Below, in pieces: positions 2,091-12,132 of a DNA stretch of 32,000 nucleotides. The position numbers and the translations under genes are program-made. This stretch comes from Corynebacterium glutamicum ATCC 13032 (lineage in GTDB: Bacteria; Actinomycetota; Actinomycetes; Mycobacteriales; Mycobacteriaceae), in assembly GCF_000011325.1 (NCBI RefSeq), contig NC_003450.3:1200001-1232000 (forward strand), in the 5' to 3' direction. The notes under the pieces were generated by a model. It searched no databases and had not been told where the DNA came from. It saw nothing but the letters and a program-made list of their open reading frames with translations. How positions within the stretch are numbered: the stretch's first letter is position 1; each line of letters begins with the position of its first letter.

Positions 2091-3632
2091 TTATTCCTTT
2101 TCACCTGTGGTTGGGGCAGCGGCAGTAAATTGCAGCGGTGTCATGGGCATATCTGAACCAATCGGGGTTGCCGGTCCAGTCTTTGCCTCCACGGATGGAG
2201 CGCCTTCCTCTGGTGGTCCGATCAGAACTGCGCGGCGAATCAGCCACACCCACACCACGAACAAAATGAGATAGAGAATCGTGAAGCCAATGAGAGTCAG
2301 CCAGACTTGCCATGGCGCATGATCAGATACACCCATATCAACAGTCATCCGGATCATCTCTGTTCGGGCATCGCCGGCAGATTCAGGGTTCGGGTGCACC
2401 ACCCAAGGCTGGCGGCCCATCTCGGTGAAGATCCAACCAGCAGAGTTGGCCAAGAATGGGAACGGGATAGCAATGAGGCTGCCGATCTGGAACAGACGAG
2501 CAATCTTTCCAGTTGGTGTGCGCTTCTTACGCAGCAACAGCCACGCAATCGCAGCGATAGCCAAAGAACCAAGCATCAGGCCGATCATTGCGCGGAATGA
2601 CCAGTAGGTGACAAACAAGTTAGGGGAGTAGTTGCCAGGACCGTATGCTTGCTCCGCTGCAGCTTGGAGCTGGTTTACACCCTGCAAAGTCACACCGGTG
2701 AATTTTCCTTCAGCCAAGAATGGAAGCACAAACGGAACATCGATCAGGTGGGTTACCGTATCGCAGTTGTTGTGCGTACCAATTGTCAGAATGGAGAAGT
2801 TTGGATCTGTGGCGGTTTCACACAAGGATTCCGCCGACGCCATCTTCATTGGCTGCTGCACGAACATGAGCTTCGCCTGGATATCGCCAGTGATGAACAG
2901 CGCCACGGAAGAGACAACTGTGGTCCACCAACCAACCCACAACGCGGGCCTGTGCATCGAATGCTTCGACTCGATTTCCGACTCAGCCTTCTTGGCCTGA
3001 CGGTGCGCACGAATAATCCACCAACCCGAAATTCCGAGAACGAAAGTTCCAGCTGTTAAAAAACCACCGGCAACAGCATGCGGGAACGCAGCCAGCGCGG
3101 TGGAGTTTGTGAGAAGAGCCCAAAAATCAGTAAGCTCCGCACGACCAGTCTCAGGGTTATACTCAGCACCCACCGGATGCTGCATAAACGAGTTGGCCAC
3201 GATGATGAAATAGGCAGAAATATTCGTCGCAATAGCAACGATCCAAATGGATGCAGTGTGCAACCAACCAGGAATCTTCCCCCATCCGAAAATCCACAGT
3301 CCCAGGAATACAGACTCAAGGAAGAACGCGATAAGACCCTCCAAAGCCAGCGGTCCGCCGAAAACATCACCGACGAAACGCGAATATTCCGACCAGTTCA
3401 TACCGAACTGGAACTCCTGCACAATGCCCGTTGCTACACCAACCGCGAAGTTGATGAGCAGCACAGTGCCAAAAAATCTTGTGGCCCGATACCAGTGCTC
3501 TTTGCCGGTAACTTGCCAAAACGTTTGCATGATTGCGACCAGCGGCGCTAAGCCAATGGTCAGTGGGACAAAAATGAAGTGATAGACGGTGGTAATTCCG
3601 AATTGCCACCGTGCGATGTCGACGACATCCAC
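2091..3632 (-). CDS. cydA: Cytochrome bd menaquinol oxidase subunit I
   Basis: 513 aa. ARWQFGITTVYHFIFVPLTIGL and GRQPWVV are CydA hallmarks. GTG start at 3632-3630. Confidence 0.95.
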   Translation of the reverse strand: MDVVDIARWQFGITTVYHFIFVPLTIGLAPLVAIMQTFWQVTGKEHWYRATRFFGTVLLINFAVGVATGIVQEFQFGMNWSEYSRFVGDVFGGPLALEGLIAFFLESVFLGLWIFGWGKIPGWLHTASIWIVAIATNISAYFIIVANSFMQHPVGAEYNPETGRAELTDFWALLTNSTALAAFPHAVAGGFLTAGTFVLGISGWWIIRAHRQAKKAESEIESKHSMHRPALWVGWWTTVVSSVALFITGDIQAKLMFVQQPMKMASAESLCETATDPNFSILTIGTHNNCDTVTHLIDVPFVLPFLAEGKFTGVTLQGVNQLQAAAEQAYGPGNYSPNLFVTYWSFRAMIGLMLGSLAIAAIAWLLLRKKRTPTGKIARLFQIGSLIAIPFPFLANSAGWIFTEMGRQPWVVHPNPESAGDARTEMIRMTVDMGVSDHAPWQVWLTLIGFTILYLILFVVWVWLIRRAVLIGPPEEGAPSVEAKTGPATPIGSDMPMTPLQFTAAAPTTGEKE

Positions 3633-3865: not shown

Positions 3866-3905
3866 CAAAAAGCGTCGAAAAGATTTTGCTTTTCGACGCT
3901 TGGTT
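3866..3905 (-). terminator. Rho-independent terminator after the PLD-helicase gene
   Basis: Perfect 12-bp stem AGCGTCGAAAAG (3871-3882) / CTTTTCGACGCT (3889-3900) with a 6-nt loop. On the minus strand it is followed by TTTTTGG. It sits 8-40 nt downstream of the stop at 3913. Confidence 0.85.
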
Positions 3906-3912
3906 GCGGTGG

Positions 3913-6828
3913 TTACTCCGTTACGGCGAGATTTGTGCTCAGGTACTCAAACAGGCTTTGTTCGACGGGTGTGTCGAACTGTAGATCCATTGTGACCACC
4001 GGTTGCACAACTCCTTTGTTTCCGGGCATCGATGACTGTTTGCTGTTTTCTGAATGCGCTTGACCAAGGTAGAAGAAATCAAGGCCTTCGGCATCGTCCT
4101 TCTTCACAAAAACATGAAGATCCACAGCATTCGCAGCGATGGGCTTGATCTCATTAGACGTGATCTTTCGGTTGCCGCGGGAATACCAATGAAGGGTATT
4201 CGGATCGACGAGTTCATCCTGGTAACGAGTACTTTCGGATACATCATCAGCCTTGTGATAGGTCACAAAGATTGGGCAAGTAGATGTGTAACTGTCCACT
4301 TTGTATCCATAAATCGTGCTCTCGTTGTTTCGTTCCCAATTGAGAATTCGGCAGACATCTCGTCGGGAGTATCTCTCGCCAACAACGAGGTTTCCTTGCC
4401 AAAATCCATTGTTTCTGGCGATAAACAAACCAGTGTCGATGATGTCTTGGACGTGAAACTTAAAATTCTGAGCAGCCTCATCTCGGTCCGTCACTTCTAG
4501 GCTTTCGTCGAGGGCACGTCGGAACTCGGGAGTAAAAGAGTAGGTGCGGTTTTGAACAGAGAGGATCGGATGTTCGCCAAACTTCTTGCGGTTTGGTCCC
4601 GTATAGAATTCTTGGCTCAAAATCCTTTCAACCGAGTTGATTGTTTGCTCATCTGAACTAGTCGATTGGGCCTGCAAGAGCTTACGGAATTCTTCAGTAG
4701 AAGTTTCAGGCTGTTTCATTAGTTCCTGGATCAGCAACAGCTCATGAGGTCGCTTGCCGTTAAGAAGCTCTCCGGTAAGGAAATCCAGAAAGTACTTCTC
4801 CGATTCGCTGGGAGCGTGATCGACAAACTTCACTGAACTGAGCAGCGACCAGTAGTTGCCAGAATGCGTGGCAAGGATAAACGGATCAACAGTATTGAAG
4901 CGAGCGAAGTCTAACAGTGCTGGCACATGATTGAGTCGATCTTGAAGCTGAACAATATCCTGCTTGAATTGTGCTTTTGAGTCCAACTTCGCAGCCTTCA
5001 ACGCAGCAAAAATTCTCTCCTGCGCGATGGGATCAAAGTTAACACTTGAAACACCTGAGATTGTTCCATCAATATCGCTCTCAATCAGGCGGCGTCTGAT
5101 GCTGTTCTTATTGCGAGAATTATCGCCAAACAATGCGATGGGAATGAGATAGTTGTTCGCGTAGTTGCCAATGAAATCAATAACGCGCAGATGGTCTTTG
5201 CCAGCAGCTTTTCGGAGTCCACGCCCGAGCTGCTGCGTAAACACAATGCTTGATTGAGTACTACGAATCATTACGATTTGATTCACCGAAGGAATATCAA
5301 TGCCTTCATTGAAGATGTCAACCGTCAAGATGTAGTCCAGGTCGCCGGACTCCAGCTCAGCTACAACCTCTTCGCGGTAGGGAATTGAGTCCTTCGCAGA
5401 GAGCGCCTTGGTTTTAAGCAAGCTGCCATTAAACAACGACTGGTCGAGAAGTTTTGACAGCTCCTCAGCCTCTTCAGTCTTGGAACAGAAGATCAGTCCA
5501 CGAACATTTTCTGGATGACCATAAGTTTTGAGGGCCTCCAGAATGTGATGGACTCTCTCTTCGCTCACCAAGGCACTTAGTTTGGAGGTATCAGTCACCG
5601 TTGTTTCAGAATCAAGCGTGAAGTCTGTGACACCGTAATAGTGAAACGGTACGAGCATGTTGGATTCTAAAGCAGCTTGAAGTCGGATCTCATATGGCAC
5701 GTTGAAATCGAACAACTCATAAATATTGAATCCATCAGTTCGCTCTGGGGTAGCAGTCAGGCCCAATAAAAACTGTGGCTGCAGATGATTGAGCAATGCC
5801 AAATAGGATTCGGCACCGGCGCGATGGACTTCATCGACGATGACTAAATCAAAGTCAGTAGGGGAGATCTGGGAAAGTGTAGCTTCCTTTGTCAGCGTTT
5901 GGATGGTGCCAAACACAAACGGCTTATCTAGCTCCTTGGTCGAGCCAGACATTTTTCCGAAATCAACAGCGGGACGTTCAAGAACTTTGATGAACTCGGA
6001 TCGCGCCTTATCCAGAATTTGTTCGCGGTGCACGACAAACAAAACTCGTTCAGGCTTGAGCATTCTTGTAGCTAGAGCAGCCAGGATAGTCTTGCCAGTT
6101 CCTGTCGCAGAAATAATGACACCACGTTTCTCTCCCTTCTCCGTCAAAGAAAGTAGAGCGTCGAGGGCCTCTTCCTGCATGACGTTTGGAACAATTGTTC
6201 CGGCGTTACTTTGATCCTCGAGAGGAATATTCTGAGACACCAAACGCTCAGGTACACGTCTGGTTGCCTCATACTCTGAGATCCATTCAGGCGTCAGTGG
6301 CGTGGATCGTTCAATTTGGCGATTAATCGCATCATCAAGTTGAAAAGCAATGTCGCCATTCTTGCTGGCAGAGAACTTCAGATTCCATTCCCGGTTTACC
6401 AACAGAGCATTATCTGTGAGGTTGGAACTACCCACTACTGCGGTGATTCCCACGTCGTGATGGAAAACGTAGCCCTTGGAGTGGAAACCATCGCCTTGAT
6501 GTATGAGGACTTCCACGTTCTCCAAAGTAAGAAGCTCACGAAACATCGTTGGATCATTGAAATCCAGGTAGCGGGACGTGATAATTCGTCCTTTACCCTT
6601 GAAGTCCAACAATGCCTGTTTCAACAACGCGATACCGCGACTGGAAATAAAAGCGACTGAAAATGTAAAAGACTGTGCGGTACGAAGCTCTAACTTGATC
6701 GCCTGCAACATGGTGTGCGGATCCTCATTAGAAATCAATGAAGGATTCAGCAGTTGTTGCGAAGCAGTGGTCTTATCGAGGAATCCAAAATGGGTATCGC
6801 GACCAAGCTTTGAATCGAATGGGCTCAT
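3913..6828 (-). CDS. Three-module protein of 971 aa: N-terminal PLD-family (single HKD) nuclease domain, central SF2 DExH helicase (ResIII/Helicase_C type), and a C-terminal DUF3427-like domain
   Basis: HKD motif HSKGYVFHHD...VGSSNLT at aa 116-136 (nt 6421-6483). Walker A ISATGTGKT (aa 239-247). DExH box VIVDEVH (aa 329-335). Motif III LTATPER. Motif VI QQLGRGLR (aa 532-539). The C-terminal RYSRRDVCRILNW...GYKV...CPIFVTYHK...HWYS...LHVFVKK...FFYLGQA matches my memory of Pfam DUF3427, which co-occurs with ResIII/Helicase_C/PLDc_2. Confidence 0.85.
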   Translation of the reverse strand: MSPFDSKLGRDTHFGFLDKTTASQQLLNPSLISNEDPHTMLQAIKLELRTAQSFTFSVAFISSRGIALLKQALLDFKGKGRIITSRYLDFNDPTMFRELLTLENVEVLIHQGDGFHSKGYVFHHDVGITAVVGSSNLTDNALLVNREWNLKFSASKNGDIAFQLDDAINRQIERSTPLTPEWISEYEATRRVPERLVSQNIPLEDQSNAGTIVPNVMQEEALDALLSLTEKGEKRGVIISATGTGKTILAALATRMLKPERVLFVVHREQILDKARSEFIKVLERPAVDFGKMSGSTKELDKPFVFGTIQTLTKEATLSQISPTDFDLVIVDEVHRAGAESYLALLNHLQPQFLLGLTATPERTDGFNIYELFDFNVPYEIRLQAALESNMLVPFHYYGVTDFTLDSETTVTDTSKLSALVSEERVHHILEALKTYGHPENVRGLIFCSKTEEAEELSKLLDQSLFNGSLLKTKALSAKDSIPYREEVVAELESGDLDYILTVDIFNEGIDIPSVNQIVMIRSTQSSIVFTQQLGRGLRKAAGKDHLRVIDFIGNYANNYLIPIALFGDNSRNKNSIRRRLIESDIDGTISGVSSVNFDPIAQERIFAALKAAKLDSKAQFKQDIVQLQDRLNHVPALLDFARFNTVDPFILATHSGNYWSLLSSVKFVDHAPSESEKYFLDFLTGELLNGKRPHELLLIQELMKQPETSTEEFRKLLQAQSTSSDEQTINSVERILSQEFYTGPNRKKFGEHPILSVQNRTYSFTPEFRRALDESLEVTDRDEAAQNFKFHVQDIIDTGLFIARNNGFWQGNLVVGERYSRRDVCRILNWERNNESTIYGYKVDSYTSTCPIFVTYHKADDVSESTRYQDELVDPNTLHWYSRGNRKITSNEIKPIAANAVDLHVFVKKDDAEGLDFFYLGQAHSENSKQSSMPGNKGVVQPVVTMDLQFDTPVEQSLFEYLSTNLAVTE

Positions 6829-7223
6829 TAAGCAAGCTGCTCGACGAGAAGTTTCACCGCAGGAATATCAGCAGGTGCCCACTCCAAAGATTCCAATTCG
6901 TGTGGTGCCACCCAGCGGATCTCAGCATGCTCGGTCAATTGAGGCTCTGCATCATTTAGTGTGCAGAAGTAGGTGGAAAGCACGACGATTCCAAAGTCGT
7001 ACTCGTGCTCTGTAGTGGTGAGGTGTTCGCCTACGGTGGCGTCGCAAAGCAATTCTTCTTTGAGCTCTCGTGCAAGTGAAGCTTCTGGAGTTTCGCCCTG
7101 CTCGATCTTTCCTCCCGGAAACTCCCAATATCCGGGAAGTGACATCTCTGGACCACGTTGTGCTGCAAGGATACGGTTTTCCTTGACTAGGACGGCGCCG
7201 GTTACATTGATGCGTTTCTTCAC
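6828..7223 (-). CDS. Nudix hydrolase (MutT/NudG-like nucleoside triphosphate pyrophosphohydrolase)
   Basis: Nudix box GGKIEQGETPEASLARELKEELLCD (GX5EX7REUXEEXGU). GTG start at 7223 preceded by GAGGAG. The TAA stop overlaps the ATG of the downstream helicase by 1 nt (TAATG at 6826-6830). Confidence 0.9.
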   Translation of the reverse strand: MKKRINVTGAVLVKENRILAAQRGPEMSLPGYWEFPGGKIEQGETPEASLARELKEELLCDATVGEHLTTTEHEYDFGIVVLSTYFCTLNDAEPQLTEHAEIRWVAPHELESLEWAPADIPAVKLLVEQLA

Positions 7224-7373
7224 GATTCTCCTCAGAACTACTGGTCAGAAACCCAATGCTAACAGTAATGAAGTGCCCCTTTGTGTTGCACCCCGCAGGG
7301 GTAGATTGATTTTCTGTTGCCTTCATAAGCTAAAGTTCTAATTTCCTAAATTGGTAAAGATCGGAACTCAAAA

Positions 7374-8141
7374 ATGTCGCTTCGAAAGCTCACAAGCTTA
7401 ATTGGCATACTGGCTGTTGTTGGCCTAGTGGCGTTTATCCTTTTCAACTTCGTGAAAACAAACGACGAAACATCGAATGTCTCTCAGAGCGAGTCAACTG
7501 CAGAGACAGTCAGCGAAACAAATGGCGTGCTCTCCGACGGCGCAGAAAACATCGCTTCTCAATCTGATGAGAGTAAATCGGGTGTAGAGATTATTGATTC
7601 TGGATTTGGGCAGAGCTCAAATTCGGCGATGGCAATTGTTATTGCCAAAACTTCTGGTGGAAGCCTCGCAGGGGAATTTGTTACGGCGACGGTGAATTTC
7701 CTCGATGAAAGTGGCGCCGTTGTAGCGACTGAAGATCAAGTAGAAACACTCAGTTGGGAAGACCAGGAATTGGTATTGCCAGTATCTCACTACAAGGAGG
7801 ATTCAAGCCGCCCAGAAATTACAAGCATTGAGGCTTTTCTTTCAGTAACGGATTACGGTTCAGGACAACCAGATGAAACTGCATTGCCGGTGTTGGAAAC
7901 CACCGATATTTCCAACCCATACGCTGGTAGTTACAATGCCTCATTTGCGTTGAAAAATGACTCCTCAGATGATTTTAAGAACCTGAGAGTTGGTATTGTT
8001 TGCTACAACGAGCAAACTGACATCATTGGTGGTGGTTTCAAATTTCCGAACCTGGTTCCAGCGGGTGGGAGTATTCGAATGGACGCTAGTGTGACGGTCT
8101 CCGAAATGCCAGCTTCTTGTAAGGCATATTTAAATCACTAA
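7374..8141 (+). CDS. Hypothetical membrane-anchored extracytoplasmic protein
   Basis: 255 aa. One N-terminal TM helix (LIGILAVVGLVAFILFNFV), a Ser/Glu-rich linker, then two roughly 85-aa segments with similar beta-rich patterns. I recognise no catalytic motif. Confidence 0.6.
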   Translation: MSLRKLTSLIGILAVVGLVAFILFNFVKTNDETSNVSQSESTAETVSETNGVLSDGAENIASQSDESKSGVEIIDSGFGQSSNSAMAIVIAKTSGGSLAGEFVTATVNFLDESGAVVATEDQVETLSWEDQELVLPVSHYKEDSSRPEITSIEAFLSVTDYGSGQPDETALPVLETTDISNPYAGSYNASFALKNDSSDDFKNLRVGIVCYNEQTDIIGGGFKFPNLVPAGGSIRMDASVTVSEMPASCKAYLNH

Positions 8142-8208: not shown

Positions 8209-9615
8209 TTAATCGCGTCGCGGATCTAGCTCTTCATAATCGATCGGAGCGATCGCCTTTGGTCGGCCTGTGGCGTAGTAAAGGATTGTCATCAGGACAA
8301 GGAATCCAACGCCGACGGCGAGTGGCAGGTGGTAGTTGTCGTACCAGACCATGATGCCGAAGGTGAAGGCGATAAATAGGATCGCGAAGTATTGTCCGAA
8401 GGGGTAGAAGGGGACAGGGAACTTCAGGGACTTGACCTCGTCGGCAGGCATGTTTCGGCGGGATCCCACCTGTGCGAGCAGGATCATCAGCCAGACGTAA
8501 ACTGTGGCGAAGGTTGCTAGGGAAGCGACGATCTCGAAGACGCGCTCGGGAAGCACTGCGTTGAGGATTACTCCCACGATCAAGACGATGATCATGATGG
8601 TGGTGGTCATGACTGGAACGCCGTTCTTGGCGATCTTGCCCATGGCCTTTGGTGCGAGGTTTTCCTTCGCAAGACCAGTGAGAACGCGGCCAGCGCCGAA
8701 GAGGTCAGCGTTGATGGCAGACAGTGCAGCGGTGATGACCACGGCGTTGAGGAGACCAGCAGCCCAGTTGACGCCGAGGGTGTCGAAGATCTGGACGAAT
8801 GGGGATTCTTCGCCGGTGATGGAAGGCCAAGGATTAAGGGCAAGGATCACCAGGATGGCACCCACATAGAAGAGGAGGATGCGTACTGGGACAGTATTAA
8901 CAGCCTTGGGGATGGACTTCTCAGGATCTTCAGCTTCAGAGCCTGCAACACCGATGATTTCGGTGCCACCGAATGCGAAGAGAACAAGGATGAAGGCTGC
9001 GATCATGCCTTCAACACCGTTGGGGAAGAATCCGCCGTGCTCCCAGAGGTTGGATACGCCGGCAACTTCAGCGTTGGCGCCGAGACCGAATGCGAGGATG
9101 GCTGCGCCGCCGACGATCATGGCGACAACTGCGGTGACCTTAATGATGGTGAAGATGAACTCGAGCTCACCGAACCAACGCACTGATGCGAGGTTTGCGC
9201 CACCGACAATAAGAAGGGTGGCTACCACCCAAGTCCATTGTGGGGTGCCGGGGAACCAGAAGTTCATATAGATGCCGATGGCTGTGAGGTCAGCCAGGCA
9301 GACGATGAGCATCTCAAACGCGAACATCCAGCCGGTGATGTAGCCTGCCCATCCGCCAAGGTGTGCGCGGGTGTAGACCGCGAAGGAACCACGGACTGGG
9401 TGATGCACAGCCATCTCGCCGAGTGCGCGCAGCATGAAGTACACGACGGCGCCACCGAGAAGGTAGACCAAGAGTACAGATGGACCAGCTGCTTGGATTG
9501 CGCCAGCGGAACCGTAGAACAAGCCGGTGCCGATCGCGGAACCCAGCGCGATGAAGTGAATGTGTCGAGCCCGCAATCCTTTAAAAGATCGGGTTGGGGC
9601 AGGGGAGGCATTCAT
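8209..9615 (-). CDS. pheP: APC-family aromatic amino-acid permease (L-phenylalanine transporter)
   Basis: 12-TM AroP/PheP-type sequence (LRARHIHFIALGSAIGTGLFYGSAGAIQAAGPS...). The ORF track extends to 9669, but its first 18 aa (MICVKKCPLFTRNEVSIS) look non-native, so I place the start at ATG 9615 (MNASPAPT). The position just upstream of the resorcinol cluster matches what I recall for C. glutamicum NCgl1108. Confidence 0.85.
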   Translation of the reverse strand: MNASPAPTRSFKGLRARHIHFIALGSAIGTGLFYGSAGAIQAAGPSVLLVYLLGGAVVYFMLRALGEMAVHHPVRGSFAVYTRAHLGGWAGYITGWMFAFEMLIVCLADLTAIGIYMNFWFPGTPQWTWVVATLLIVGGANLASVRWFGELEFIFTIIKVTAVVAMIVGGAAILAFGLGANAEVAGVSNLWEHGGFFPNGVEGMIAAFILVLFAFGGTEIIGVAGSEAEDPEKSIPKAVNTVPVRILLFYVGAILVILALNPWPSITGEESPFVQIFDTLGVNWAAGLLNAVVITAALSAINADLFGAGRVLTGLAKENLAPKAMGKIAKNGVPVMTTTIMIIVLIVGVILNAVLPERVFEIVASLATFATVYVWLMILLAQVGSRRNMPADEVKSLKFPVPFYPFGQYFAILFIAFTFGIMVWYDNYHLPLAVGVGFLVLMTILYYATGRPKAIAPIDYEELDPRRD

Positions 9616-9933
9616 CGAGATGCTGACCTCGTTTCGGGTGAATAGCGGACATTTTTTGACGCAGATCACCTTACTCTGAAGGATAAGGATTCTTAGTGTC
9701 GGTGCACTTTTACTGATGTTTCACTGTGGAGGTCAACGACTCAAAGTCGAGAATTGGTGGCGCGTGTCACTGGAATTGACGCGTGAATGGGGTGGAAGTG
9801 GACGTCGAAAAGCATTTTTGAGACGTTTATGTGAGCAATGTCCCATTTTCCCTGCTCACCTGTATGGGCACCCGCGGCGGAAGTGGAATTGCATATGGAG
9901 TTTTGATGATATTTAGCGTAACTTAAAGGAACA

Positions 9934-12132
9934 ATGAGTAATACCGAGAACGTCAACGGCGACGTAGAACAGCCGAATAACGTCATTTCGTCGGAATCTC
10001 AGGAAACCCCGCAGGGTGACTCAGCATCAGCTGACTTCGCTCTCGAAACCCCAACCAACACTGTTGAAGATGCACCAGCATCTGAGGGTAGCGAAGAGAT
10101 CACCAGGGTTGCGGATACTTCTGAGGACGCCGACTCTGCAGATGCAGACAACGCGAGCAATGTAATCAATGAGAATGAGGACTCCTCGGAAGGTGCTAAC
10201 CAGCCTTCAAACGAGTCATCCTCTACGGAAGCCAAATCCGGCTTCGATGCACTCGGACTGCCAGAGCGTGTTCTTGACGCTGTGCGCAAGGTGGGTTACG
10301 AAACTCCTTCCCCAATTCAGGCACAAACCATCCCAATCCTCATGGAGGGCCAGGATGTTGTTGGTCTAGCACAGACCGGTACCGGTAAGACTGCAGCTTT
10401 CGCGCTGCCAATCCTTGCCCGTATTGACAAGTCCGTGCGCAGCCCACAGGCACTTGTGCTTGCCCCTACCCGTGAGCTGGCACTTCAGGTTGCTGACTCC
10501 TTCCAATCCTTCGCTGACCACGTCGGTGGCCTGAACGTTCTGCCAATCTATGGTGGACAGGCTTACGGCATTCAGCTCTCTGGCCTGCGTCGTGGCGCTC
10601 ACATCGTCGTGGGTACCCCAGGCCGAATCATCGATCACCTCGAAAAGGGCTCCCTGGATATCTCCGGACTGCGCTTCCTCGTGCTCGATGAAGCAGACGA
10701 GATGCTGAACATGGGCTTCCAGGAAGATGTCGAGCGCATCCTCGAGGACACCCCAGACGAGAAGCAGGTTGCACTATTCTCCGCAACGATGCCAAACGGC
10801 ATTCGTCGCCTGTCCAAGCAGTACCTGAACAACCCTGCTGAAATCACCGTTAAGTCCGAGACCAGGACTAACACCAACATCACCCAGCGCTTCCTCAACG
10901 TTGCACACCGCAACAAGATGGATGCACTGACCCGTATTCTCGAGGTCACCGAGTTTGAAGCAATGATCATGTTCGTGCGCACCAAGCACGAAACTGAAGA
11001 AGTTGCTGAAAAGCTCCGTGCACGCGGATTCTCCGCAGCAGCCATCAACGGCGACATTGCTCAGGCACAGCGTGAGCGCACCGTCGACCAGCTGAAGGAC
11101 GGCCGCCTGGACATCCTCGTTGCAACCGACGTTGCAGCCCGTGGTCTTGACGTTGAGCGCATCTCCCACGTGCTTAACTTCGACATTCCAAACGACACCG
11201 AGTCCTACGTTCACCGCATCGGCCGCACCGGCCGTGCAGGACGTACCGGCGAGGCAATCCTGTTCGTGACCCCACGTGAGCGTCGTATGCTTCGCTCCAT
11301 CGAGCGCGCAACCAACGCACCACTGCACGAAATGGAACTGCCAACCGTCGATCAGGTCAACGACTTCCGCAAGGTCAAGTTCGCTGACTCCATCACCAAG
11401 TCCCTCGAGGACAAGCAGATGGACCTGTTCCGCACCCTGGTCAAGGAATACTCCCAGGCCAACGACGTTCCTCTAGAGGACATCGCAGCGGCACTGGCAA
11501 CCCAGGCACAGTCCGGCGACTTCCTGCTCAAGGAGCTCCCACCAGAGCGCCGTGAGCGCAACGACCGCCGTCGTGACCGTGACTTCGACGACCGTGGTGG
11601 ACGTGGACGCGACCGTGACCGTGGCGACCGCGGAGATCGTGGCTCACGCTTCGACCGCGACGACGAGAACCTGGCAACCTACCGCCTCGCAGTGGGCAAG
11701 CGCCAGCACATCCGCCCAGGCGCAATCGTTGGTGCACTTGCCAACGAAGGTGGCCTGAACTCCAAGGACTTCGGCCGCATCACCATCGCAGCCGACCACA
11801 CCCTGGTTGAACTGCCAAAGGATCTCCCACAGAGCGTTCTTGACAACCTGCGCGACACCCGCATCTCCGGCCAGCTCATCAACATAGAACGCGACTCCGG
11901 TGGACGCCCACCACGCCGCTTCGAGCGCGATGACCGTGGCGGACGCGGCGGATTCCGCGGCGACCGTGATGACCGCGGTGGACGTGGACGTGACCGTGAC
12001 GATCGTGGAAGCCGTGGAGGTTTCCGCGGTGGACGTGACCGTGATGATCGTGGCGGACGCGGTGGATTCCGCGGACGCGACGACCGCGGAGACCGTGGTG
12101 GCCGTGGCGGTTACCGTGGCGGACGCGACTAA
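9934..12132 (+). CDS. DEAD-box ATP-dependent RNA helicase (DeaD/CshA-like) with an acidic N-terminal extension, a DbpA-like RNA-binding domain and RGG/RD-rich tails
   Basis: Q-motif GYETPSPIQ, Walker A AQTGTGKT, DEAD box VLDEADEM, SAT, and motif VI HRIGRTGRAG. The DbpA-like segment is YRLAVGKRQHIRPGAIVGALANEGG. RBS AAAGGAACA precedes the ATG. Confidence 0.95.
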   Translation: MSNTENVNGDVEQPNNVISSESQETPQGDSASADFALETPTNTVEDAPASEGSEEITRVADTSEDADSADADNASNVINENEDSSEGANQPSNESSSTEAKSGFDALGLPERVLDAVRKVGYETPSPIQAQTIPILMEGQDVVGLAQTGTGKTAAFALPILARIDKSVRSPQALVLAPTRELALQVADSFQSFADHVGGLNVLPIYGGQAYGIQLSGLRRGAHIVVGTPGRIIDHLEKGSLDISGLRFLVLDEADEMLNMGFQEDVERILEDTPDEKQVALFSATMPNGIRRLSKQYLNNPAEITVKSETRTNTNITQRFLNVAHRNKMDALTRILEVTEFEAMIMFVRTKHETEEVAEKLRARGFSAAAINGDIAQAQRERTVDQLKDGRLDILVATDVAARGLDVERISHVLNFDIPNDTESYVHRIGRTGRAGRTGEAILFVTPRERRMLRSIERATNAPLHEMELPTVDQVNDFRKVKFADSITKSLEDKQMDLFRTLVKEYSQANDVPLEDIAAALATQAQSGDFLLKELPPERRERNDRRRDRDFDDRGGRGRDRDRGDRGDRGSRFDRDDENLATYRLAVGKRQHIRPGAIVGALANEGGLNSKDFGRITIAADHTLVELPKDLPQSVLDNLRDTRISGQLINIERDSGGRPPRRFERDDRGGRGGFRGDRDDRGGRGRDRDDRGSRGGFRGGRDRDDRGGRGGFRGRDDRGDRGGRGGYRGGRD
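11893..12129 (+). repeat. Coding low-complexity tandem repeats (RGG / DRDDRGGRGGFRG units) forming the helicase C-terminal tail. A first, shorter RD block lies at about 11539-11669.
   Basis: The protein reads DDRGGRGGFRGDRDDRGGRGRDRDDRGSRGGFRGGRDRDDRGGRGGFRGRDDRGDRGGRGGYRGGRD. At the nucleotide level there are reiterated cgtgaccgtga/ggtggacg units. Confidence 0.9.

Follow-up and report, generated by a model that had tools for sequence, protein, structure and literature searches.

A predicted SauUSI-type restriction endonuclease gene overlaps a Nudix hydrolase gene in Corynebacterium glutamicum: a possible nucleotide-pool partner for type IV restriction

The locus

The window studied here is a stretch of 32,000 nucleotides from the genome of Corynebacterium glutamicum ATCC 13032 (assembly GCF_000011325.1, contig NC_003450.3, positions 1,200,001 to 1,232,000), and positions given without a locus handle are counted from its first letter. 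Two overlapping genes on its minus strand are the subject of this study. The first, at 6828..7223, has a GTG start and encodes, according to the open reading frame (ORF) list and its translation, a 131-amino-acid (aa) Nudix hydrolase. The second, at 3913..6828, has an ATG start and encodes a 971-aa protein that homology places, with high confidence, among the SauUSI-family type IV (modification-dependent) restriction endonucleases. The TAA stop of the Nudix gene (6830-6828) and the ATG of the larger gene (6828-6826) have one A in common, so that the minus strand reads TAATG at 6826..6830, an overlap which suggests that translation of the two genes is coupled.

A ribosome-binding site, GAGGAG, lies at 7228-7233, 4 nucleotides upstream of the GTG. 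It falls inside an intergenic region (7224..7373, minus strand, GC content 0.41) that I presume to hold the operon promoter and that is common to the Nudix operon and a divergent orphan ORF at 7374-8141; the promoter is only presumed because a sigma-70 consensus scan of 7224..7373 found none on the minus strand. At the other end, a hairpin resembling an intrinsic terminator (3866..3905, minus strand, 13-bp stem followed by a U-run) closes the two-gene operon. It folds at -23.3 kcal/mol (z = -5.75), as well as which none of 200 shuffled sequences folds; a simple consensus terminator scan did not call it, owing to that scan's T-run rule. The two reading frames, their 1-nucleotide overlap and the strong terminator had all been described in an initial annotation made from the letters alone, and they stand. 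Both proteins are identical to C. glutamicum proteins, with matches to MB001 AGT05142.1 ('putative nuclease, HKD-family') and Q8NR99_CORGL, and the identical sequence is found on hundreds of C. glutamicum contigs.

A predicted SauUSI-type restriction endonuclease

SauUSI is the type IV, ATP-dependent endonuclease of Staphylococcus aureus, where it is the main barrier to transformation. It cuts S5mCNGS sites that carry 5-methylcytosine (5mC) or 5-hydroxymethylcytosine (5hmC), uses ATP or dATP, and restricts without a partner both in E. coli and in vitro. Its crystal structure shows a dimer formed through PLD nuclease domains, an SF2 translocase, a helical coupler and an SRA-like target-recognition domain, and the paper on that structure predicts that the last of these flips the modified base. 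The 971-aa protein matches SauUSI collinearly over nearly its whole length (PDB 7clg, E 9.4e-218, aa 8-964 on 8-952) and covers positions 9-952 of the 953-position PADLOC profile for such enzymes (mREase_IV PDLC03658, E 2e-224). In an alignment of the query with SauUSI and six actinobacterial homologues, from which residue conservation was also read, the identity to SauUSI is 41% over the full length.

The domains follow in the SauUSI order, all encoded on the minus strand. An N-terminal PLD-family nuclease domain (aa 1-190, 6259..6828; Pfam PLDc_2 at aa 70-155, E 1.6e-7) has a single HKD motif, FHSKGYVFHHD...GSSN, which carries H116 and K118. The catalytic residues H116, K118, N136 and E147 are invariant in the alignment and correspond to SauUSI H119, K121, N139 and E150, whose alanine mutants lose activity according to Xu et al. 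(2011). An SF2 DExH helicase-like ATPase or translocase comes next (aa 213-615, 4984..6192, with limits carried over from SauUSI residues 221-617), made up of Pfam ResIII (aa 213-363, E 1.6e-37) and Helicase_C (aa 437-539, E 1.1e-11). Its motifs are likewise invariant: Walker A GTGKT at 243-247 (K246), DEVH at 332-335, TATP at 358-361 and QQLGRGLR at 532-539. The remainder (3916..4983) would comprise a coupler (about aa 616-816) and an SRA-like target-recognition domain (about aa 817-965), with Pfam DUF3427 (aa 683-963, E 9e-90) lying inside. The initial annotation had recognised the nuclease, helicase core and DUF3427 correctly, but had taken DUF3427 to be a domain of no assigned function; by the SauUSI crystal structure, 'DUF3427' here appears to correspond to the coupler plus the SRA-like reader of 5mC and 5hmC.

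The pocket of that reader was compared through the PDB 7clg alignment at six SauUSI positions (M829, Y831, F841, I842, D858 and W868). Four of the six are the same in the C. glutamicum protein (Y842, F854, D871 and W881), I842 is replaced conservatively by V855, and the intercalating M829 is replaced by Y840. Base reading is therefore probably kept, and the recognised context may differ from S5mCNGS. SauUSI and the query are alike in domain order, length (953 and 971 aa), PLD catalytic residues, helicase motifs and most of the SRA pocket; they differ in the two pocket residues just named, and the host of the query belongs to the Actinomycetota. The C. glutamicum enzyme is thus very probably an active nuclease, and its dependence on modification would follow from the same homology. 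A search of the literature for this C. glutamicum locus, for SauUSI in Corynebacterium and for the cglIM methylome found no paper on this gene.

The possibility of a classical type I or III restriction-modification system was rejected. No methyltransferase or specificity subunit gene adjoins the pair or occurs among its neighbours within 10 kb, as the initial annotation had noted of the adjacent genes, and HsdR and Res models match the ATPase core only, at scores far under their cut-offs. The suggestion made there that the locus is a defence-type module with type IV restriction logic is borne out by the full-length homology to SauUSI.

A Nudix subfamily apart from MutT and NudG

The 131-aa protein matches Pfam NUDIX (E 1.4e-19) and, far more closely, the PADLOC family PDC-S07 (E 5.1e-55, aa 1-128 on positions 3-130 of 135). 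Its Nudix box is intact (G38-x5-E44-x7-R52-E53-L-x-E56-E57), with the minor deviation that the final 'GU' reads LL. Among 92 family members the residues Y75, E98-H99, W104 and A116-P-A-D119-x-P121 are invariant, and D119 occupies the position of D118 in the APAD motif of E. coli NudG. The best match in the PDB is 5x1x ('Mutator mutT protein', 130 aa, E 2.3e-47), which is probably the S. aureus orthologue, SAUSA300_2432. After it, the near structures include the CTP/5-methyl-dCTP pyrophosphatases Mycobacterium smegmatis MutT2, NudG and Bacteroides fragilis Q5LBB1 (5zrc 80 bits, 2rrk 75 and 3gwy 69), and the true MutT of E. coli (1mut, 44.7 bits) is the most distant.

Orthology to MutT was rejected because the protein scores under the curated cut-offs (83.4 against 97.9 for TIGR00586, 81.1 against 148 for PRK10776). 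Orthology to NudG was rejected on the same ground, and NudG is better regarded as a relative than as an orthologue. On these scores the 131-aa protein reads as a member of a distinct subfamily, neither a NudG nor a MutT equivalog.

Two of these relatives have a measured preference for dCTP (deoxycytidine triphosphate) modified at C5. Q5LBB1 (3gwy) has a kcat/Km of about 5e6 for both 5-methyl-dCTP and 5-hydroxymethyl-dCTP (5-hm-dCTP), and NudG (Orf135, 2rrk) prefers 5-methyl-dCTP; the modifications that they favour, 5-methyl and 5-hydroxymethyl, are exactly those that SauUSI reads. The C. glutamicum Nudix protein, whose substrate is predicted here from sequence, is like both in fold, size, membership of the MutT-like branch and the WEFPGGK, EH and APAD-P motifs, including NudG D118. 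Unlike it, the gene for NudG is flanked by ynjF and ynjH, and no restriction gene adjoins it.

Linkage of the Nudix gene to modified-cytosine systems

One genome per GTDB species was scanned and the 80 closest full-length homologues of the nuclease were taken (42-59% identity, from Actinomycetota and Bacillota); about 100 loci were sampled in all. A Nudix homologue directly adjoins the nuclease gene in 78 of the 80 species loci, and in one of the two exceptions the contig ends right after the nuclease gene. The Nudix gene lies upstream on the same strand in 67 of the 78, downstream on the same strand in 1, and downstream and convergent in 10, the last arrangement occurring mostly in streptococci; the upstream genes of other species mostly lie about -11 to +38 nucleotides from the nuclease start. 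The order nuclease-then-Nudix is also seen in gut-derived contigs. When all flanking ORFs of the 80 loci were clustered, the nuclease and Nudix genes were the only conserved ones. Plasmids carry the pair as well, among them ones of Bacteroidota and Lactiplantibacillus; those of Hymenobacter and Lactiplantibacillus are mobilisable, and one of Chondrinema is typed as non-mobilisable.

Adjacency that outlasts the break-up of the operon and changes of gene order speaks for a functional link and against hitch-hiking. Pairwise divergences of the nuclease and the Nudix protein are also correlated (Mantel r 0.58), but I give this little weight because shared phylogeny alone would yield such a correlation. 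The initial annotation had asked whether the Nudix gene is adjacent in this lineage only and whether the helicase gene is a core gene in a stable context; the co-occurrence just described speaks against the first, and the variable chromosomal and plasmid settings and patchy distribution of the nuclease homologues speak against the second.

Several of these loci have features of their own. In Nocardioides (L025, 2978-3388) and Ureibacillus (L045, 2758-3117) a second Nudix paralogue lies 1.6-1.9 kb upstream of the first; genes for a NERD-domain protein and a nucleotidyltransferase, as well as an EVE-HNH gene, are located between the copies or next to them. On 'plasmid unnamed2' of S. aureus strain 333 (L083, NZ_CP077890.1, 5356-8211) the SauUSI gene that follows the Nudix gene is broken into three or more reading-frame pieces, with another partial copy inverted further downstream, and the nuclease is absent from the PLSDB gene table, from which pseudogenes are omitted; this suggests either that the strain is naturally deficient in restriction or that the assembly is faulty. 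The Nudix protein of this locus is about 59% identical to that of C. glutamicum (tblastn) and its gene almost abuts the nuclease gene (Nudix end 5354, nuclease start 5356). Four GenBank records from human faeces labelled 'UNVERIFIED: Bacteriophage sp.' (L101-L104) hold SauUSI-like/Nudix pairs together with glutamyl-tRNA synthetase and MatE transporter genes and look more like pieces of bacterial chromosomes than like phage genomes.

The same Nudix subfamily was then viewed from the other side, through a tblastn search with the Nudix protein against plasmid and phage records, which gave about 22 contexts for inspection. The copies found beside other modified-cytosine systems match PDC-S07 at E 1e-38 to 1e-50 in all that were scanned (L099 and L100 left out). 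On three Bacillus plasmids such a gene lies immediately upstream of genes for McrB-like AAA_5 and McrC proteins (McrC PF10117, E 2e-68 and 1.5e-89). On plasmids of Priestia and B. albus it lies beside genes for EVE-HNH endonucleases of the VcaM4I family (PDB 6yex, E 1e-64 and 6e-44), VcaM4I being a 5mC/5hmC-dependent enzyme, and in the Ureibacillus locus with two Nudix copies an EVE-HNH gene lies 1.2 kb from a Nudix gene. In Collinsella aerofaciens (L087, NZ_OY725717.1, 5998-6987) a 329-aa protein annotated merely as 'Vsr' is a fusion of a PDC-S07-type Nudix domain (aa 5-127) with Vsr (aa 197-257). The Vsr endonuclease acts in the repair of deaminated 5mC. A Treponema Nudix gene overlaps an AbiLi-like ATPase gene near two Dcm methyltransferases, and in Selenomonas a GmrSD_N protein is encoded 1.3 kb from the Nudix gene. 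The common thread of these contexts is C5-modified cytosine, and no single nuclease or nucleoside triphosphatase (NTPase) chemistry runs through them.

McrBC was rejected as a fixed partner of the Bacillus plasmid Nudix genes, as only 3 of the inspected plasmids are so arranged; a McrC homologue lies tens of kb away in most Bacillus plasmids, which indicates a slot for variable cargo instead of a fixed pair. On the megaplasmids of the Bacillus cereus group (L084, L085, L086 and L096-L100) the Nudix gene is a conserved anchor followed by such a swappable slot, filled with McrBC, with EVE-HNH and MazG-like genes, with a SocA-domain gene (L097, L098), with hypothetical and recombinase genes (L096), or with a zeta toxin and a broken GIY-YIG/SLFN-g3 helicase (L086). 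An ArsR-family regulator gene stands just upstream of the Nudix gene in L097, L098 and L099, and the slot as a whole looks like a defence hotspot.

Two further gene families recur near these systems. A gene for a second NTP pyrophosphatase unrelated to the Nudix protein, of the MazG-like family PF12643, lies just after the SauUSI-like gene in Lactiplantibacillus plantarum (L090, 8316-8636) and near the EVE-HNH gene in B. albus (L099, 7676-8005). If PF12643 is, as I take it to be, the family of eukaryotic DCTPP1, a 5-methyl-dCTPase, these genes give a convergent hint of pool sanitation. A helicase of the Schlafen-group-3/DUF2075 type adjoins a Nudix or SauUSI-like gene in three loci (L086, 7621-9302; L090, 8654-10348; L104, 647-2647), in one case with a GIY-YIG nuclease domain, and may be another partner nuclease family.

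The pairing with SauUSI itself is already known, contrary to the initial annotation, which knew of no characterised system of this kind. SauUSI has been characterised biochemically and structurally; Xu et al. (2011) reported a conserved MutT/Nudix gene, SAUSA300_2432, linked to SauUSI (SAUSA300_2431) and found no fewer than 60 pairs of this kind in KEGG, leaving the function open and suggesting pyrophosphate handling. In S. aureus Newman, deletion of the Nudix gene by Monk et al. (2012) gave a viable strain that had not become transformable, so the Nudix protein is dispensable for restriction. My literature search found no later paper that assigns a function to the SauUSI-linked Nudix protein, and Nudix proteins go without mention in a 2025 review on the biology of restriction. 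The C. glutamicum nuclease is therefore an uncharacterised addition to a known family, that of SauUSI, and its Nudix partner is likewise a known one; the link of the Nudix subfamily to modified-cytosine systems across families is absent from the literature searched.

Chromosomal setting

The flanks of the pair are ordinary chromosomal genes, and the cassette lies outside any defence island. Within 10 kb the neighbours are cydABDC, the orphan ORF, a permease, a DEAD-box helicase, a TetR regulator and catabolic genes. Beyond the 3' end of the nuclease gene lie cydA (2091-3632) and cydB (1087-2088), both on the minus strand, and then the start of cydD. On the other flank an amino-acid permease gene (8209-9669) is followed by one for a 732-aa DEAD-box helicase with a DbpA domain (9934-12132) and, up to 16800, by a TetR regulator and a cluster of monooxygenase, iron-dependent alcohol dehydrogenase (Fe-ADH) and dioxygenase genes. 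The GC content is 0.47 in the nuclease gene against 0.53-0.59 in the flanking genes, a difference that points to an islet gained by horizontal transfer and not to a defence island.

The orphan ORF (7374-8141, plus strand, GC content 0.46) is divergent from the Nudix gene and encodes 255 aa with an N-terminal hydrophobic segment. It was rejected as a third component since Pfam gave no match for it and none of the roughly 100 related loci holds a homologue, and it seems to be part of the same low-GC islet, outside the cassette.

Discussion

The locus is best explained as a two-gene, horizontally mobile type IV restriction cassette. By homology, the endonuclease would form a dimer through its single-HKD PLD nuclease domains, and its C-terminal SRA-like domain would flip out 5-methyl- or 5-hydroxymethylcytosine. 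Recognition of the modified base would switch on the SF2 ATPase and so drive translocation along the DNA, which would be cut on stalling of the moving enzyme. Foreign DNA with C5-modified cytosine, including plasmids with Dcm-type methylation and phages with hydroxymethylcytosine, would thereby be destroyed, and no partner methyltransferase would be needed because unmodified host DNA is no substrate.

The Nudix protein, translated in step with the nuclease, would be an active pyrophosphohydrolase that converts 5-methyl-dCTP and 5-hm-dCTP to monophosphates. Salvage after the breakdown of methylated DNA, 5mC DNA of the host itself or synthesis by phages could supply these nucleotides, and clearing them would keep the replicative polymerase from writing self-restriction targets into the chromosome. 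The Nudix protein would thus take the self-protecting role of a methyltransferase, at the level of the nucleotide pool and not of the DNA. Behind this proposal stand the observations made here on gene architecture, homology, conservation of motifs and linkage of genes across families, and the literature on homologues supplies the biochemistry of SauUSI and the 5-methyl- and 5-hm-dCTPase activity of related Nudix enzymes. On balance I favour the proposal as a whole, a type IV cassette whose Nudix protein clears modified dCTP, though with modest confidence, and by analogy with its relatives I lean to the same degree towards C5-modified (d)CTP as the substrate; self-protection as the purpose is plausible, at a little under even chances. 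The initial annotation had already supposed a link to the pool of modified nucleotides, and that idea coincides with the explanation favoured here.

What explains the wider distribution of the Nudix subfamily? Cleaning of the nucleotide pool accounts for a link to EVE-HNH enzymes that have no NTPase, as the pyrophosphate idea of 2011 does not, and it also accounts for the fusion to Vsr. I would go further only tentatively, and suggest that the PDC-S07 Nudix protein may be an 'immunity' component, a dedicated pyrophosphatase for 5-methyl- and 5-hm-dCTP recruited independently by SauUSI-type, McrBC and EVE-HNH systems, and also by Vsr/Dcm. McrBC and the VcaM4I-type enzymes resemble the C. glutamicum endonuclease in that they cut only DNA with C5-modified cytosine, have no methyltransferase partner and in some cases have a PDC-S07 Nudix neighbour. 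The proteins are nevertheless unrelated. McrBC consists of an AAA+ GTPase and the nuclease McrC, in VcaM4I an EVE reader is joined to an HNH nuclease, and PLD and SF2 domains are missing from both.

By analogy, the pair also resembles a classical restriction-modification system as a two-gene cassette of a nuclease and a small enzyme that spares host DNA, but it would clean the nucleotide pool instead of marking the DNA, and its protection would be conditional and not essential. The same job as that proposed here has a parallel in eukaryotic DCTPP1, described as a dCTP/5-methyl-dCTP pyrophosphatase that keeps 5-methyl-dCTP out of DNA synthesis. DCTPP1 has an all-alpha MazG fold in place of the Nudix fold, and no link to restriction.

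The state of the host genome bears on whether such protection would matter. S. aureus has no 5mC methyltransferase, whereas the C. glutamicum lineage has CglIM, encoded in ATCC 13032 with CglIR and CglIIR on the prophage CGP3. A viable S. aureus Nudix mutant that still restricts fits an accessory protective role because that species makes no 5mC of its own, and a host that makes its own 5mC DNA would be the setting in which a 5-methyl-dCTP sanitiser matters most.

Several points weigh against the proposal. The score of the Nudix protein against the NudG equivalog model PRK10546 is 100.6 bits, under the cut-off of 156, and NudG R72 and R77, which are not conserved here, are replaced by H and G; taken together these indicate that the base pocket is not the same as that of NudG. 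The second-best PDB match, at 83 bits, is 3ees, which I take to be the RNA pyrophosphohydrolase BdRppH of Bdellovibrio. For the S. aureus Nudix protein, my search found neither a substrate study nor a paper devoted to it, and the deletion mutant was reported without a phenotype, in a paper that does not show the data, from which it follows that self-protection cannot be essential in a host free of 5mC. The presence of CglIM in the same strain as a nuclease of the 5mC-reading type means that the specificity of the latter must differ from M.CglI sites or that its activity is restrained. In addition, the figure of 78 of 80 describes the closest relatives of the query and may not hold for distant DUF3427 helicases, and 5 of the roughly 22 Nudix contexts have no recognisable modified-cytosine enzyme nearby, three of them holding toxin-antitoxin cargo or unnamed hypothetical genes (L096, L097, L098) and two housekeeping genes (L093, L102); a sixth context, L086, has the zeta toxin and broken helicase after the Nudix gene.

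The main rival, which is compatible with self-protection, casts the Nudix protein as an offensive factor against phages. By itself or together with the nuclease, it would deplete the 5-hm-dCTP or 5-methyl-dCTP of phages, so that replication of modified-cytosine phages is starved or unmodified phage DNA is laid open to other systems. PADLOC lists PDC-S07 as a stand-alone candidate defence gene, with a lone call in Streptococcus thermophilus, a related Nudix enzyme hydrolyses 5-hm-dCTP as efficiently as 5-methyl-dCTP, members of the family occupy variable slots of the defence type on Bacillus plasmids, and the hm-dCTP pool is put forward in the 2025 review as something that might be attacked or sensed. 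However, less modified dCTP would mean less phage modification and hence less type IV activity, in which case tight coupling to the nuclease would be odd; the Vsr fusion and the placement near Dcm point to management of the host's own 5mC, and no phage-resistance phenotype has been reported. I regard an offensive role as unlikely, if a serious competitor.

It is less likely still that the protein is an ordinary house-cleaning enzyme of the MutT type (an 8-oxo-dGTPase or a general pyrophosphatase of (deoxy)nucleoside triphosphates) that is merely co-inherited with the nuclease. Database names (8-oxo-dGTP diphosphatase or MutT), the 83-bit match to TIGR00586 and the unchanged restriction of the S. 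aureus deletion mutant would all suit such an enzyme, and plain co-inheritance would also produce the observed correlation of divergences. Yet that MutT match falls under its curated cut-off, and true MutT proteins are the most distant of the PDB relatives. Nor does mere co-inheritance sit well with adjacency kept through three gene orders, one of them convergent, across three phyla, or with ties of the same subfamily to the unrelated modified-cytosine enzymes McrBC, EVE-HNH and Vsr.

A third idea, that the Nudix protein serves or regulates the nucleotide chemistry of the nuclease, through the products of ATP or dATP hydrolysis or a nucleotide signal, goes back in part to the proposal of pyrophosphate handling by Xu et al. 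(2011). It would make sense of the translational coupling and of the use of ATP or dATP by SauUSI. But the Nudix protein is dispensable for restriction by SauUSI in vivo, SauUSI works by itself in E. coli and in vitro, and the same Nudix subfamily is linked to McrBC, which depends on GTP, and to EVE-HNH enzymes without an NTPase domain, so that a role tied to ATP hydrolysis does not generalise. Moreover, Nudix enzymes are not known to hydrolyse free pyrophosphate, and I consider this idea improbable.

The case for an RppH-like enzyme that removes pyrophosphate from, or decaps, the 5' ends of host or phage transcripts starts from the 3ees match and weak matches to Nudt16-like and RppH models. 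The RppH models reach only 22-32 bits against cut-offs of 116-259, and the neighbourhoods of the Nudix gene are DNA-modification systems, not RNA systems, which makes such a role very improbable. Least probable of all is that the large protein is a DNA-repair helicase-nuclease of the RadD or XPB kind instead of a restriction endonuclease, a reading prompted by partial matches of the helicase core to RadD, XPB and UvrB models and rejected on curated cut-offs, since these matches are confined to the ATPase core and far too low (RadD 107 against 720), whereas the match to SauUSI is full length and the gene has a low GC content, a patchy distribution and plasmid-borne homologues in other phyla.

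Conclusions

C. glutamicum is an industrial workhorse, and its uptake of DNA from E. coli varies with the methylation of that DNA. An intact enzyme of the SauUSI type offers a concrete candidate for this barrier, and an obvious target for deletion where better transformability is wanted. As the pairing with SauUSI has been described before, the remaining interest lies in the Nudix protein and its association with modified-cytosine systems across families. The Nudix partner of SauUSI has stood unexplained since 2011, and the cross-family linkage found here gives a specific and cheaply testable hypothesis, that it is a sanitiser of the nucleotide pool. If this is true, type IV systems would not be strictly single-component, and a PADLOC 'candidate defence gene' would gain a mechanism. 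Type IV systems, which have been deemed to have no need of self-protection, would then face a conditional autoimmunity that is solved at the level of the nucleotide pool.

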